DNA from: a virus
Lineage: Duplodnaviria > Heunggongvirae > Uroviricota > Caudoviricetes
Direction: 5' to 3' (one strand)
Virus record (IMG/VR): IMGVR_UViG_2874968258_000001
Coordinates: 1-61,666 of that record
Length of the DNA stretch: 61,666 nucleotides
Below are positions 24,307 to 57,740 of the stretch, piece by piece; within the stretch, counting starts at the first letter, position 1, and each line of letters starts with the position of its first letter. Both the position numbers and the translations under genes were made by a program. The notes under the pieces were generated by a model that saw only the letters and a program-made list of their open reading frames with translations, made no database searches and was not told the origin of the DNA.

Positions 24307-25139
24307 ACAGTTTAACGGCAAATAACCGTTTGTCGCAACAGCTGGTGGTCAGTGTCGCTGAACACCTGTTGTTACGGCATGAATGCAGATTACCAAATCA
24401 CCTGGCTGTAAGTAACCACAGAGAACTTTACCTGACTGTGGGGGGCGAGTTGTGCAGGAACTTAACCGCTGGTTTCGTGATGGAAGAGGGCTTTATGTCC
24501 ATGTTATTCGTTGGGAGCCAGAAACACAGCGCGTTATCTATCTTCGCAAAGACTACCCGCATGAGTGCTTTAGTCCTTTGTGGAAATTCAGGCGTGATTT
24601 TGTTGAGTGTGAAGGACCACCAGCACATTGATTCTGCCATTCCGGGACGTTACACTGTTCAGGCACCTTATAAAGCGGGTGCCGGGATTGGCGTCCTGGA
24701 ATTGATCAAGGCGATATATGACGCGCCAGCGTCTTTTTTATCGTCCGCATTTGCTCACATCAAAGTTATGGTGGGCTGGGCGGGGGCATCGAAAGATGCG
24801 CCGGTTTCCTTGATCACCGGTTACGCCAACCCCGTTCAGTTCACCACCAGCGAAATTGGCGTTTCCGGTGGTGGAAGTATTTCACCGATCAAGGAGGCTG
24901 CCATCATGGCTACTGTCCCAGCCCTCACTCGTCTGAATGATGAAGACTTACATAAACTCAGTTATGTAACAACTGCACTACGTGCTCTGCGCAAGGTAAC
25001 TCTTTCGGATCCGCAGGCGCATCAGGTTCTGGTAGAAACCCTTCTTAACTTGCAGGCTGAACGTATCCGTTTGGCGGATAAGGCTAATTTTCATATTCAC
25101 CGTCTCCTGAATATCAGCGGAGGGCATCGTCATGCTTAA
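24303..25139 (+). CDS. Hypothetical protein (YdaU-like position)
   Basis: 278-aa ORF, too long to be chance, overlapping stop/start with the upstream gene. Confidence 0.35.
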   Translation: MNSLTANNRLSQQLVVSVAEHLLLRHECRLPNHLAVSNHRELYLTVGGELCRNLTAGFVMEEGFMSMLFVGSQKHSALSIFAKTTRMSALVLCGNSGVILLSVKDHQHIDSAIPGRYTVQAPYKAGAGIGVLELIKAIYDAPASFLSSAFAHIKVMVGWAGASKDAPVSLITGYANPVQFTTSEIGVSGGGSISPIKEAAIMATVPALTRLNDEDLHKLSYVTTALRALRKVTLSDPQAHQVLVETLLNLQAERIRLADKANFHIHRLLNISGGHRHA

Positions 25140-29875: not shown

Positions 29876-30628
29876 ATGAACCTTGAAGCCTTACCAAAAT
29901 ATTACTCCCCAAAATCTCCAAAATTGAGCGATGACGCACCGGCGACAGGCTCAGGTGGTTTAACGATTACGGATGTGATGGCTGCGCAGGGGATGGTGCA
30001 GTCGAAAGCACCGCTTGGGTTTGCCTTATTCCTGGCAAAAGTTGGTGTTCAGGATCCTCAATTTGCGATTGAAGGTCTGCTCAATTACGCGATGGCACTG
30101 GATAACCCGACATTGAACAAATTGAGTGAAGAAACCCGGTTACAGATCATCCCTTACCTTGTGAATTTTGCCTTTGCTGATTATTCCAGGTCTGCGGCAA
30201 GTAAGGCTCGCTGTGAGCATTGTGCTGGTACTGGATTTCATAATGTATTGCGCGAAGTGGTGAAACACTCCAGAAGCGGGGAATCTGTTATCAAGGAAGA
30301 GTGGGTGAAGGAACTATGTCAGCATTGTCATGGTAAGGGAGAAGTCAGCACAGCGTGCAGAGGGTGTAAGGGTAAAGGTATTGTCCTGGATGAAAAAAGG
30401 ACCCGGCTTCATGGCACACCTGTTTATAAGATTTGTGGGCGTTGCAATGGAAACCGGTTTAGCCGTTTACCAACCACACTGGCGCGGCATCATGTCCAGA
30501 AGCTGGTACCAGACCTGACGGATTATCAGTGGTACAAAGGATATGCAGATGTCATTGATAAACTGGTTACAAAGTGCTGGCAGGAAGAAGCATATGCAGA
30601 GATACAATTGAGAAAGGTGACAAGATAA
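29876..30628 (+). CDS. Late antiterminator Q-like protein with CxxC zinc-binding repeats
   Basis: CEHCAGTG...CQHCHGKG...CRGCKGKG motifs; position upstream of tR'-like terminator and lysis genes. Confidence 0.55.
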   Translation: MNLEALPKYYSPKSPKLSDDAPATGSGGLTITDVMAAQGMVQSKAPLGFALFLAKVGVQDPQFAIEGLLNYAMALDNPTLNKLSEETRLQIIPYLVNFAFADYSRSAASKARCEHCAGTGFHNVLREVVKHSRSGESVIKEEWVKELCQHCHGKGEVSTACRGCKGKGIVLDEKRTRLHGTPVYKICGRCNGNRFSRLPTTLARHHVQKLVPDLTDYQWYKGYADVIDKLVTKCWQEEAYAEIQLRKVTR

Positions 30629-30734
30629 ATGGTTTTCGCCGAAGATGACGACATGATGCTTGCATTTTTCAAAAAATATGGATAAGATTTTCCCAACGAT
30701 GGGCTTTGTATGTCTACCGTTGATAAGATTTAAG

Positions 30735-30761
30735 AACCCGCCACTGAGCGGGTTTTTTTGT
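30735..30761 (+). terminator. tR'-like rho-independent terminator (copy 1)
   Basis: AACCCGCCACTGAGCGGGTTTTTTT. Confidence 0.7.
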
Positions 30762-30908
30762 GCCTGATGTCTCATGAAACTATGAAATGGATTGGTGCGT
30801 TAAACATTTTTTCTTATTATCTTTTAGATTTTGGAGAGATGGTTAACGTCTGTATTCCAGAAACTCGATGATTATTTAATAAATTAGTTTCAATGATGCT
30901 TCTAGGTT

Positions 30909-31334
30909 ATGACTGTAATGAAAAAGGTATTAATAGCAGCGATAGGTTTTTGTTTAGTTGGTTGTGCAGGTATGAAATTACCTGAGTATTCGCAAGTTAA
31001 AGCAAGTCCGTATTATACAGATTGCCGTGCGTTTGCCATGGATGTTTATAAAAATGATGGATACAGCAAAATTGCGAAAACTACTATCCTTAGCATGGAT
31101 GATGTGAAGGCTAGATATATTGTGACAGGGTGTGTAGTTGCTATGGGGAAAAACACTGTAGAGGAAATCAAAGCTGATCTCTCTGCTAAAGGGAGTTCTT
31201 TTGGGCTTATCAGTGGAGCTTGTTCTAGTGCGGCATGTCGGGTTGATGTAGAGCAGCAAATGAACGCTTATGTACTTGGTAGTTATTATGCTGCAAATAA
31301 AAAATTCCCGGATAAAATGAAAGCAGAGTTTTAA
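30909..31334 (+). CDS. Lipoprotein moron of unknown function
   Basis: Signal peptide with lipobox (LVGCAG); AT-rich; flanked by two copies of the same terminator sequence. Confidence 0.6.
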   Translation: MTVMKKVLIAAIGFCLVGCAGMKLPEYSQVKASPYYTDCRAFAMDVYKNDGYSKIAKTTILSMDDVKARYIVTGCVVAMGKNTVEEIKADLSAKGSSFGLISGACSSAACRVDVEQQMNAYVLGSYYAANKKFPDKMKAEF

Positions 31335-31411
31335 GTAAACCTTGTTTTCGATTATATGTCGAAGATAAATGTTAGTAACGGCATAATAAGTAAATATATA
31401 GCTGTGATAGC

Positions 31412-31437
31412 AACCCGCCACTGAGCGGGTTTTTTGT
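31412..31437 (+). terminator. Rho-independent terminator (copy 2 of the tR'-like sequence)
   Basis: AACCCGCCACTGAGCGGGTTTTTTG. Confidence 0.7.
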
Positions 31438-31911
31438 ACCTGTAAACTTGGTGCAGTACAGTAAACACGCTGGTGGTCGTGAATACTGACTTTTTATCTT
31501 GCTGGCTTTTTAGACAAGAGTTATTGGTATGTCATGTTAACCAGAAGGGAAAAAGACATGCTAAAACAGCAAGATATGACAGAAACCGCCGCCGCAGTCC
31601 TTCATTTCTTACCTGCTGACAAGTGGGTAACGCCACGCATGATGACGAGAACTACCGGAGTAAGTGAAGCCCGGTGCCAGTTAATACTGACTCAGTTAGT
31701 TCTGGCGGGTCTGGCGAAGGATAGCGGCGGGTACGGGAATAAATTCAGACGCTGCCAGTAATGGCGGTTTCCTGCTGTGAAAATGGGCGGCTGGTGGGTG
31801 TTGGTAGCACCTGCCAGCCATTCGCTCATGCTTACTGGTCACAAGCGAACCACGGCCCACTGCTTTAGCGCAAAAGCAGAGTGAGCCTACCAGAGTTACG
31901 CTTACTGATCC

Positions 31912-32964
31912 ATGAAAAATACTGTAAAAATAAACAGTGTTGATTTAATCAACGCTGATTGCCTGCATTTTATTCAGTCCCTGCCTGATGATTCCATTGA
32001 CCTGATTGTTACCGATCCGCCGTACTTCAAGGTGAAACCCAACGGCTGGGACAATCAGTGGAAAGGGGACGAAGATTACCTTAAGTGGCTGGACCACTGT
32101 CTGGCCCAGTTCTGGCGGGTGTTAAAACCTGCCGGAAGCCTTTACCTGTTCTGTGGGCATCGCTTGGCATCTGATATTGAGATCATGATGCGTGAACGTT
32201 TCAACGTGCTTAACCATATCATCTGGGCGAAGCCGTCCGGACGTTGGAATGGGTGTAATAAAGAAAGTCTGCGCGCATATTTTCCTGCCACAGAGCGCGT
32301 TCTGTTTGCTGAACATTACCAGGGTCCATATCGCGGCAAAAGTGACGGCTATGCGGCAAAAGAAAGGGAACTCAAACAGCACATAATGGCACCGCTGATA
32401 TCGTATTTCAGGGATGCTCGTGCCGAACTGGGTATAACGGCAAAACAAATTGCCGAAGCCACAGGTAAGAAAAATATGGTTTCCCACTGGTTTGGTGCCA
32501 GTCAGTGGCAGTTGCCGAATGAGGCTGACTATCGGAAGTTACAGGCACTGTTTTCCCGTATAGCGGCAGAGAAGTTTCAGGAACAACAACTGGAACAACC
32601 ACACCACCAGCTGGTGGCATCTTATGATTCACTGAATCGCAAATATTCTGAATTGCTGGATGAGTTTAAATCTCTCCGGCGCTATTTCTCCGTATCAGTC
32701 TCCGTGCCTTATACCGATGTCTGGATGCATAAACCCGTTCAGTTCTACCCGGGTAAACATCCGTGTGAGAAACCTGCGGATATGCTCCGGCAAATAATCA
32801 ATGCCAGTAGTCGACCTGGTGATCTGGTTGCTGATTTTTTTATGGGATCCGGTTCCACAATAAAAGCAGCAATGGCGCTGGGGCGTCGGGCCTTAGGTGT
32901 TGAGCTTGAGTCAGAGCGGTTTAACCAGACAGTGAAAGAGATAAACGAGCTGGTGGGGAAATAA
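31912..32964 (+). CDS. Orphan DNA methyltransferase (N6-adenine/N4-cytosine type, DPPY motif first, SAM motif last)
   Basis: IVTDPPYF near N-terminus and FFMGSGST near C-terminus. Confidence 0.75.
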   Translation: MKNTVKINSVDLINADCLHFIQSLPDDSIDLIVTDPPYFKVKPNGWDNQWKGDEDYLKWLDHCLAQFWRVLKPAGSLYLFCGHRLASDIEIMMRERFNVLNHIIWAKPSGRWNGCNKESLRAYFPATERVLFAEHYQGPYRGKSDGYAAKERELKQHIMAPLISYFRDARAELGITAKQIAEATGKKNMVSHWFGASQWQLPNEADYRKLQALFSRIAAEKFQEQQLEQPHHQLVASYDSLNRKYSELLDEFKSLRRYFSVSVSVPYTDVWMHKPVQFYPGKHPCEKPADMLRQIINASSRPGDLVADFFMGSGSTIKAAMALGRRALGVELESERFNQTVKEINELVGK

Positions 32965-33030
32965 TCTGGTGGCCACGTAGGTGGCCTTTTTATTTCCATT
33001 ACACAGCACCCGCATCTGCGAGGTGGGGTT

Positions 33031-33246
33031 ATGAAATCCATGGATAAGTTAACAACGGGTGTCGCCTATGGCACCTCAGCAGGTAGTGCCGGGTACTGGT
33101 TTTTACAGTTGCTCGATAAAGTCACGCCCTCACAGTGGGCGGCAATAGGTGTGCTGGGTAGTCTGGTATTTGGCTTGCTGACGTATCTGACAAACCTTTA
33201 TTTCAAGATTAAAGAAGATAAGCGTAAGGCTGCGAGAGGTGAATAA
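33031..33246 (+). CDS. Holin
   Basis: 71-aa ORF with two hydrophobic helices and charged C-terminus, immediately upstream of the endolysin. Confidence 0.65.
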
Positions 33247-33743
33247 TGTCGCCATCATTACGCAAGGCTGTTGCTGCTGCTATTGGTGGTGGGGCTGTTG
33301 CCATAGCGTCTGTGCTCATCACTGGTCCGAGTGGTGACGATGGCCTGGAAGGTGTCAGCTACATACCATACAAAGATATCGTTGGCGTATGGACTGTATG
33401 TCACGGACACACCGGAAAAGACATCATGCTAGGTAAAACGTATACCGAAGCAGAATGCAAAGCCCTCCTGAATAAAGACCTTGCCACGGTCGCCAGACAA
33501 ATTAACCCGTACATCAAAGTCGATATACCGGAAACAACGCGCGGCGCTCTTTACTCGTTCGTCTACAACGTGGGTGCTGGCAATTTCAGAACATCGACGC
33601 TTCTTCGCAAAATAAACCAGGGCGATATCAAAGGCGCATGTGACCAGCTACGTCGCTGGACATACGCTGGCGGTAAGCAATGGAAAGGCCTGATGACTCG
33701 TCGTGAGATTGAGCGTGAAGTCTGTTTGTGGGGGCAACAATGA
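33246..33743 (+). CDS. Endolysin (lysozyme-type, probable signal-anchor-release N-terminus)
   Basis: 165-aa ORF between holin and Rz; hydrophobic N-terminus. Confidence 0.7.
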
Positions 33744-34207
33744 GCAGAGTAACCGCGATTATCTCCGCTCTGGTTATCTGCATCATCGTCTGCCTGTCGT
33801 GGGCGGTCAATCATTACCGTGATAACGCCATCGCCTACAAAGAACAGCGTGATAAAAAAGTCAGTGAGCTGAAGCAGGCGACCGCCACCATCGCTGACAT
33901 GCAGCAGCGTCAGCGTGATGTTGCTGCGATCGATGCAAAATACACGAAGGAGTTAGCCGATGCGAAAACTGAAAATGAAACTCTGCGCGCTGATGTTGCC
34001 GCTGGTCGTAAGCGCCTGCGGGTCAATGCCAGTTGCTCCGCAGCCGTGCGTGAAGCCACCGGACCCACCAGCATGGATAATGCAACCAGCCCCCGACTGG
34101 CAGACACCGCTGAACGGGATTATTTCACCCTCAGAGAACGGTTGATGACGATGCAGAAGCAACTGGAAGGGGCGCAGGAATATATCCGCACCCAGCGCAT
34201 TAAGTAG
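33740..34207 (+). CDS. Rz i-spanin
   Basis: N-terminal TM helix and coiled-coil, embedded Rz1 in the +1 frame. Confidence 0.7.
33960..34145 (+). CDS. Rz1 o-spanin lipoprotein embedded in Rz
   Basis: [22 protein letters not shown] lipobox, proline-rich. Confidence 0.7.
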
Positions 34208-57156: not shown

Positions 57157-57740
57157 TGGCATTCAGAATGAGTGAACAAGCACGGACCATAAAAATTTAT
57201 AATCTGCTGGCCGGAACTAATGAATTTATTGGTGAAGGTGACGCATATATTCCGCCTCATACAGGTCTGCCAGCAAACAGTACCGATATTGCACCACCAG
57301 ATATTCCGGCAGGCTTCGTGGCTGTTTTCAACAGTGATGAGGCATCGTGGCATCTCGTTGAAGACCATCGGGGTAAAACGGTTTATGACGTGGCTTCCGG
57401 CGACGCGTTATTTATTTCTGAACTCGGTCCGTTACCGGAAAATGTTACCTGGTTGTCGCCGGGAGGGGAATATCAGAAGTGGAGCGGCACAGCCTGGGTG
57501 AAGGATACGGAAGCAGAAAAACTGTTCCGGATCCGGGAGGCAGAAGAAACAAAAAACAGCCTGATGCAGGTAGCCAGTGAGCATATTGCGCCACTTCAGG
57601 ATGCTGTAGATCTGGAAATCGCAACGGAGGAAGAAACCTCATTGCTGGAAGCCTGGAAAAAGTATCGGGTGTTGCTGAACCGTGTTGATACATCAACTGC
57701 ACCGGATATTGAGTGGCCAGAAGAACCAGACACCGTGTAA
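57156..57740 (+). CDS. tfa: Tail fibre assembly protein Tfa
   Basis: [54 protein letters not shown]... parallels lambda Tfa. Confidence 0.85.

Follow-up and report, generated by a model that had tools for sequence, protein, structure and literature searches.

A probable single-gene lipoprotein moron between two copies of the tR' terminator in a lambda-like Escherichia coli prophage

The virus record IMGVR_UViG_2874968258_000001 (Caudoviricetes; its whole length of 61,666 nucleotides is referred to here as the window) carries, downstream of the gene for the antiterminator Q, a gene for a small lipoprotein that lies between two copies of one terminator. We consider it quite probable that this is a single-gene moron, that is, a 641-bp AT-rich cassette that sits just 3' of the lambdoid terminator tR' and is closed by a second copy of tR', and for which we propose a mode of transcription, a fate of the protein and an origin. 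This reading is preferred because 1) some genomes have the cassette and others lack it at a site that is the same in all other respects; 2) its base composition is foreign; 3) its gene is under purifying selection; and, 4) relatives of the gene are found in different phage contexts. The cassette is a clear but ordinary phage moron of a lambda-like prophage of E. coli, an example of a known phenomenon for which the evidence is sharp, with sites both with and without the insert, counts across a population of genomes and a lineage that is the probable donor.

The 24-mer AACCCGCCACTGAGCGGGTTTTTT occurs in the window as two exact copies, at 30735-30758 and 31412-31435, both on the + strand; no third copy is present in the window when up to 3 mismatches are allowed, and 100 dinucleotide-preserving shuffles gave 0 matches. 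Each copy has a G+C-rich hairpin directly 5' of a U tract and would be predicted to act as an intrinsic terminator, with the hairpin and U tract folding at -14.1 kcal/mol (z = -3.6) for copy 1 and -12.0 kcal/mol (z = -2.2) for copy 2, which was also recovered by a terminator scan of the window. The repeat extends past 24 nucleotides, as T7-GTGCCTG after copy 1 and T6-GTACCTG after copy 2, and, taken together with the empty site of SfV, the direct-repeat unit is about 31-36 bp long with one indel. An earlier note on this DNA, made from its letters, had pointed to the same terminator at 30735 and 31412 around an AT-rich gene for a 141-residue lipoprotein, and this is borne out by the exact repeat, the folds, the open reading frame (ORF) and the base composition, G+C being 0.30-0.42 over 30700-31500 against 0.45-0.58 on either side and 0.38 in the lipoprotein coding sequence.

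Alignment of the window with SfV and vB_EcoM-720R4 (720R4) places the junctions of the insert at about 30770 and at 31411/31412. Both relatives have the same backbone of KilA-N, DUF968, Q, orf47 and methylase genes, with one terminator and no lipoprotein gene, and tR' is the sole terminator at these empty sites. In 720R4 the left flank and single terminator are followed by exactly the window sequence 3' of copy 2, which is continuous with this type of empty site, and in SfV the terminator is followed by the variant T7-GTGCCTTGATGT, as after copy 1. A 961-bp query spanning the feature matched mEp460, Ayreon and 15 Stx2c phages at 99.8-100% identity, and both terminators are annotated in Ayreon. 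Among 5426 complete E. coli genomes the insert is found in 215, each with at least 80% cover, and the 961-bp query, which includes the flanks, is covered to at least 80% in the same number (215/5426); the contiguous empty junction is found in 425 and the window's Q type in 2414. Given the single-terminator empty sites of SfV and 720R4, and 215 occupied as against 425 empty genomes, the lipoprotein gene is, on these alignments, an optional accessory insertion rather than a core gene. The insertion at the tR' region that the earlier note had suggested is therefore upheld, the insert abutting tR' exactly and leaving a direct repeat of it, and the comparison with related prophages that it called for brings up SfV, 720R4 and 425 E. 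coli genomes without the insert, so that the gene is not conserved as core, with one terminator copy, in every relative. In one E. coli genome (NZ_OZ501612.1, 4148013-4149430; hit H61) an IS1 element is found inside the moron.

Judged from pairwise dN/dS values of 0.08-0.2, with dS at saturation when the E. coli gene is compared with that of Salmonella, and from an invariant lipobox and four other invariant cysteines, the lipoprotein gene is a real protein-coding gene under strong purifying selection. The N-terminus of the protein reads MTVMKKVLIAAIGFCLVGC/AG, with the lipobox L-V-G-C, and the N-terminal sequence MKKVLIAAIGFCLVGC fits a signal peptide that ends in the lipobox pattern [LVI][ASTVI][GAS]C. 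Gly18 and Cys19 do not vary in an alignment of 8 homologues, and neither do Cys39, Cys75, Cys105 and Cys110; the mature protein has about 122 residues. Two other reading frames, an antisense one of 147 residues (30978-31421, -) and one of 37 residues that the Ayreon annotation places between copy 1 and the lipoprotein gene, were rejected as AT-rich artefacts, selection being on the + frame, and an o-spanin identity of the lipoprotein was rejected as Rz and Rz1 are separately present.

The protein gave a single strong match in a search of PHROG profiles, to phrog_4748 (E = 7.5e-91), a family without an assigned function, and none to Pfam, NCBIfam or PADLOC profiles. Across these four collections no profile match was found to Bor (PF06291), TraT (PF05818) or the Cor/Llp PHROGs; a sequence-profile search of the PDB returned noise only, and structure comparison of the model of the protein found no specific fold match. 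The homology and structure search proposed in the earlier note thus gained a family in phrog_4748, although not one with a known function or a specific fold. The family is very small, with 9 clusters in a word-indexed search of 5.8 billion proteins and 8 matches in an exhaustive hidden Markov model search of 1.84 billion representative proteins, and the database names of its members are all 'hypothetical' or the automatic 'lipoprotein'. We found no mention of the protein accession WP_000217632 in the literature, and literature searches on mEp460, Stx2c and SSU5 brought up nothing on the lipoprotein gene. By these comparisons the family is outside every named lipoprotein family, and several deposited phage genomes already list the protein as hypothetical.

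We predict that the lipoprotein is exported, lipidated at Cys19 and present in the periplasm as a small helical domain with two disulfides. It would be sorted to the outer membrane, since it has Ala at +2, which by the +2 rule suggests such sorting. By analogy with other phage lipoproteins, the protein would most likely alter the envelope to the benefit of the lysogen; our best guess, although less likely than not, is that it excludes superinfecting phage, acting either at the receptor or on injection. Ltp of the Streptococcus phage TP-J34 is all-helical, as is the model of the present lipoprotein. Like Ltp, lambda Bor, phi80/N15 Cor and T5 Llp, this is a small phage lipoprotein that the lytic cycle does not require and that has a predicted action on the envelope, but it has no sequence or profile similarity to them in Pfam or PHROGs, is longer (about 122 residues when mature) and has four conserved cysteines. 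Ltp is mentioned in earlier work (PMC3952083).

Relatives of the gene are found in surroundings unlike those in the window. In Salmonella prophages a gene of 76% identity is flanked on one side by a Q of unrelated type (DUF1133/PF06530) and on the other by holins, with an identical CCCGCCACTGAGCGGG-T7-GTACCTG upstream and a loop-variant terminator, AACCCGCATTGCGCGGG-T5-GTATCC, downstream, and in S. diarizonae-type prophages the gene is an early-region neighbour of vapBC and lacks these hairpins. At 62-65% identity it is carried by 204 non-mobilizable plasmids of Klebsiella, Cronobacter, Citrobacter and Buttiauxella (the listed examples being of about 100-120 kb), and several large Klebsiella phages also have it; these plasmids and phages match SSU5-like phage-plasmids by size and gene content. 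The order in the phage-plasmids is dnaE, a DUF7740 gene, the lipoprotein gene and then directly, 10 nucleotides downstream, a gene for a second lipoprotein of 99 residues (L005:4446-4745, L133:751-1050, L136:3931-4230, L137:3937-4236). This partner has no Pfam match and is missing from the lambdoid cassette, and profile-profile comparison limits its likeness to the lipoprotein family to the signal peptide. The leader 5' of the lipoprotein start is homologous across these lineages, and in the Citrobacter plasmid pCAV1741-110 the terminator CCCGCCGATTGGCGGGTTTTGTTTTGCC, built like tR' (CCCGCC...GCGGG-T(n) type), lies 5' of it. After the downstream terminator of a Salmonella prophage (L004:4540-4812) we read, by eye, an apparent C-terminal remnant of the window-type DNA methyltransferase, which suggests a shared ancestral downstream context.

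The closest relatives outside E. coli and Salmonella are thus in the SSU5-like lipoA-lipoB pair, at 54-65% amino acid identity and with the same lipobox and cysteines; the plasmid-type copies measured have a similar G+C of 0.42-0.43 and a homologous leader, and the copy in the Citrobacter plasmid also has a terminator of similar type upstream. The pair differs from the lambdoid cassette in that it follows dnaE in a replication/recombination module and combines the gene with that for the 99-residue lipoprotein, whereas the cassette has the first gene only. We infer that the cassette was captured as a single gene from such a pair, SSU5-like phage-plasmids being the probable source, and that the left joint formed by recombination at or near CCCGCC...GCGGG-T(n) terminators, with the similarity of the terminators helping.

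Lambdoid morons are reported to have been described in HK97 and HK022 by Juhala and colleagues in 2000. The cassette resembles morons of this type in being an extra gene that is missing from close relatives, in its deviant composition, in having its own terminator and in its position in the interval from Q to the lysis genes; it differs in that its own promoter is here only a candidate and in that the closing terminator copies the resident tR' instead of being unrelated to it. Set beside the criteria by which morons have been defined (PMC3594210), the cassette has presence and absence among close relatives, a deviant base composition and, at the level of sequence, its own terminator in copy 2. 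The PR'-proximal interval between Q and holin is a recognised moron slot (PMC4104026), and the statement of the earlier note that this slot carries morons in other lambdoid phages agrees both with that work and with the Stx2k cassette, which lies upstream of stx2AB in the same interval.

The core of the terminator is also found at many other phage junctions. The 22-nucleotide CCCGCCACTGAGCGGGTTTTTT (30737-30758 and 31414-31435 in the window) occurs at least 124 times in viral contigs (IMG/VR loci L008-L127), in at least 55 distinct upstream and at least 59 distinct downstream contexts, and frequently has GYRCCYG(G)AG and then a start codon on its 3' side. The core follows several upstream Q/leader contexts, at least two of which were checked and are unrelated in Q family (PF03589, DUF1133), and precedes several downstream modules. 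Loop variants of the stem are common in viral contigs, and many E. coli megablast matches begin or end exactly at the core. One locus (L105:1455-3638) comes close to the arrangement in the window, having a Q of the same family (PF03589), the same 22-mer as tR', one cargo ORF, a near-identical second terminator (CCCGCCATCGAGCGGG-T7) and then a holin; it differs in that the cargo is a PemK/MazF-like toxin of 133 residues, not a lipoprotein, and in that the second terminator is off by two loop bases. The core behaves like a shared module-junction sequence, and the architecture of terminator, cargo and terminator is recurrent. Another locus (L113:5671-7120, -) has two copies of the 22-mer within a myovirus baseplate operon, at a distance of 1428 bp, and the second of them comes after a putative lipoprotein of 118 residues with a possible lipobox LTSC; the relatives L036, L054 and L116 have other DNA at the position of this lipoprotein, together with a loop-variant terminator.

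Because the core is found in so many upstream and downstream contexts, recombination between resident junction copies is possible, and the 'duplicated terminator' may be best read as the outcome of recombination among copies of a shared junction sequence, not as copying made by the insertion. Where the earlier note had taken the duplicated terminator to suggest insertion by recombination, recombination at tR' is supported, but a copying event at insertion has to be qualified, the core not being private to this site. It is possible, and we hold it tentatively, that the two terminators are independent resident copies of a ubiquitous boundary family, the cassette and the site each already having had one. 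The number of contexts and the abundance of loop variants favour this, as does the Salmonella cassette, which has an identical upstream terminator despite saturated synonymous divergence and a loop variant downstream, and the plasmid homologue, which is preceded by a similar terminator. At occupied sites the loop of copy 1 is variable (CCACTG, CCGCTG as in SfV, CCCCTG in mEp460), and copy 2 is constant across the occupied sites sampled, which is partly an ascertainment effect. That copies 1 and 2 differ at many occupied E. coli sites is again in favour of independent copies; in the viral-contig sample about half of the scorable occupied sites show a difference between them of a single base or a few bases, most often one base of the loop. 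However, the similarity of the copies in the window runs beyond the hairpin and T tract (GTGCCTG and GTACCTG), and empty sites are exactly left flank, one copy and right flank. Independent copies would in any case be largely compatible with a single-gene moron, as they alter its history and not its architecture.

A further proposal, which we regard as rather unlikely, combines two claims: that the unit of about 30 bp, CCCGCC-loop-GAGCGGG, T6-7, GYRCCYG, is a portable recombination joint, and that the lipoprotein is a new envelope exclusion family that spread from SSU5-like phage-plasmids. Bracketed cassettes would then excise as circles and re-enter any one-copy phage, Campbell-style, by homologous recombination, and the second copy would automatically re-insulate the downstream late or structural operons. 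A portable joint would account for the 22-mer at dozens of unrelated junctions and in several Q/leader contexts, and also for the bracketed lipoprotein gene of the window and of Salmonella, the PemK toxin in the same slot and the putative lipoprotein in the baseplate operon.

The candidate PR' (Table 1) ends in the 10-mer CCAACGATGG, which is unique in the window, recurs at the matching position 3' of Q in related loci and presumably resembles the sigma-dependent pause element of lambda PR'. The concept of such an element at PR' has been described (PMC9191641). In homologues from phage-plasmids and metagenomes (L137:3449-3458, L133:262-271) the 10-mer also lies about 50 nucleotides 5' of the start of the lipoprotein gene, a hint that the ancestral leader had a promoter-proximal element like that of PR'. 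Another 10-mer, GATAAGATTT, is found twice, 41 nucleotides apart, at 30681-30690, where it overlaps the -10 of the candidate PR', and at 30722-30731, just 5' of tR'; with the latter copy, the short PR' transcript may include a further -10-like element. The RNA predicted to run from PR' to tR', of about 65 nucleotides (window about 30695-30760), consists of a 5' hairpin and the terminator (z = -3.5). Like the PR' transcripts of other lambdoid phages, this RNA could be short and stable.

We propose that in the lysogen, without Q, constitutive PR' transcripts would end at copy 1 as this RNA of about 65 nucleotides, and that the lipoprotein gene would be read from a promoter in its own leader, which is the weakest link of the proposal. 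Copy 2 would then halt the moron transcript before orf47, the methylase, holin and endolysin, or before stx in Stx2 phages. On induction, Q-modified RNA polymerase would pass both tR' copies as well as the third terminator, and the lipoprotein gene would then be expressed late too. The leader has two candidates for its promoter (Table 1), and the hexamers of the first persist as TTGGTA-N18-TATCAT in the Salmonella leader, which is about 60% identical. A comparison of the leader in six lineages found conserved blocks and no unambiguous -35/-10 pair.

Several points weigh against a moron of the kind proposed. No promoter passed a stricter consensus scan of 30760-30908, the -35 hexamers of both candidates are weak, and the leader motif, CCAACGATGG in the plasmid and CCAACGAGGG in Salmonella, is degraded in the E. 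coli cassette. It is conceivable that the empty sites are not ancestral and arose by precise deletion, through recombination of one repeat with the other. With regard to the protein, none of the profile, PDB and fold searches found a functional homologue and the exclusion role is a guess by analogy, and the AlphaFold2 model predicts a generic all-alpha helical bundle at a predicted local distance difference test (pLDDT) score of 79, a value reached by only 1 of 5 models, built on 8 sequences.

As the consensus scan finds no promoter and the leader motif is degraded, expression by Q read-through only is the main rival to a moron with its own promoter. The lipoprotein gene would on that account be an optional late gene, transcribed from PR' only, with a lytic role, for example in modulating the envelope or lysis, and the second terminator would be a leftover of recombination. 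Its position inside the late operon, beside the lysis genes, in both E. coli and Salmonella would fit, but we think this unlikely, since homologues are found outside late operons, with vapBC as neighbour in an early region or with dnaE upstream in phage-plasmids, holin, endolysin, Rz and Rz1 already make up a full lysis set in this phage, two-thirds of otherwise identical sites are without the gene, and the candidate -35/-10 hexamers are kept across a leader that is otherwise so divergent. It is highly improbable that the insert is a small non-autonomous transposable or site-specific mobile element with terminators as its targets and a long target-site duplication as a product of its insertion, since, although it has a direct repeat at both ends, lies directly after an intrinsic terminator and has an imperfect inverted repeat near its ends (30806-30820 and 31383-31397, 13/15 complementary), there is no transposase or integrase ORF, the inverted repeat is internal, 35 and 15 nucleotides from the junctions and in AT-rich DNA, homologous genes elsewhere are without these ends, and a duplication of 31-36 bp is much longer than known target-site duplications. 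An identity as an insertion sequence or miniature inverted-repeat transposable element was rejected on the same grounds, namely the internal and imperfect inverted repeat, the lack of a transposase ORF and the 31-36-bp direct repeat.

The single-gene moron has a bearing on Shiga toxin (Stx) phages. In phiSTEC1575-Stx2k (L129:5001-8616) the order is Q, terminator, lipoprotein gene, terminator, orf47-like gene, transfer RNA genes and stx2AB, and from the identity of the cassette region the same order is probably found in 15 Stx2c phages (e.g., L128, Stx2c_PV98-693). As the cassette lies between PR' and stx2 in Stx2k, and the same region is present in the Stx2c phages, there is an extra terminator ahead of the toxin genes, which in Stx2k are separated from PR' by two intrinsic terminators and a possible extra promoter; these additions could influence basal toxin expression. 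More widely, a strongly conserved and predicted envelope lipoprotein is encoded in about 4% of complete E. coli genomes, including those of ST131 JJ1886/JJ1887, as well as in many Salmonella and in a large family of Klebsiella phage-plasmids, and the recurring terminator bracket suggests a rule by which a promoter-bearing gene enters a late operon without killing the lysogen.

Table 1. Positions of the insert, its candidate signals and the surrounding genes in the window.
Feature	Position	Strand	Basis and details
Q antiterminator gene, 250 residues from ATG	29876..30628	+	PF03589 Antiterm, E = 1.3e-53
Candidate PR'	30660..30702	+	TTGCAT 30660-65, 17-nt spacer, TAAGAT 30683-88, then CCAACGATGG 30693-30702; read from sequence
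Terminator copy 1 (tR')	30735..30759	+	Hairpin 30737-30752, T7 30753-30759; exact repeat, fold; annotated terminator in Ayreon and SfV
GTGCCTGATGT	30760..30770	+	Post-terminator bases still homologous to SfV-type empty site; left junction of insert
Inserted AT-rich segment, 641 bp	30771..31411	+	Leader, lipoprotein gene and 3' untranslated region; missing from SfV and 720R4
Candidate moron promoter	30792..30820	+	TTGGTG-N17-TATTAT; read from sequence
Weaker alternative moron promoter	30831-30858	+	TTGGAG-N16-TATTCC; read from sequence
Lipoprotein gene, 141 residues	30909..31334	+	ORF; alternative start ATG 30918; lipobox LVGC, Cys19
Terminator copy 2 (hairpin, T6) and GTACCTG	31412..31442	+	Right end of direct repeat; annotated terminator in Ayreon
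orf47-like backbone gene, 67 residues from annotated ATG	31558..31761	+	phrog_331, E = 4e-26; mechanical ORF start 31534
Backbone DNA methyltransferase (N6/N4)	31912..32964	+	PF01555, E = 2e-42; PADLOC MTase_II
Third intrinsic terminator, before lysis genes	32971..32991	+	Terminator scan; annotated at equivalent position in Ayreon and SfV
Holin, P21-type	33031-33246	+	PF04971
Endolysin	33246-33743	+	ORF; annotations in relatives
Rz, with Rz1 embedded at 33960-34145	33728-34207	+	ORF; lysis cassette spans 33031..34207

The Q gene, of which the mechanical ORF begins at GTG 29834, is annotated as antitermination protein Q or ydfT in Ayreon, SfV, 720R4 and JJ1886, and has a DUF968 gene upstream; the orf47-like gene on the other side of the insert is found at empty and occupied sites alike. 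Over 30600-31560 there is no curated RNA in Rfam, and the sub-threshold Trp/Leu-leader matches there were rejected, being explained by the terminator hairpins; an Rfam scan found no AgvB/AsxR-type small RNA between the cargo and the backbone ORF. Elsewhere in the window, isrK and the C4 antisense RNA match Rfam side by side at gathering level, at 24663-24739 and 24764-24851, an adjoining arrangement which we take to be like that of the P1/P7-type antirepressor immunity region, and there is an Rfam match to the small RNA IS009 at 57499-57697.

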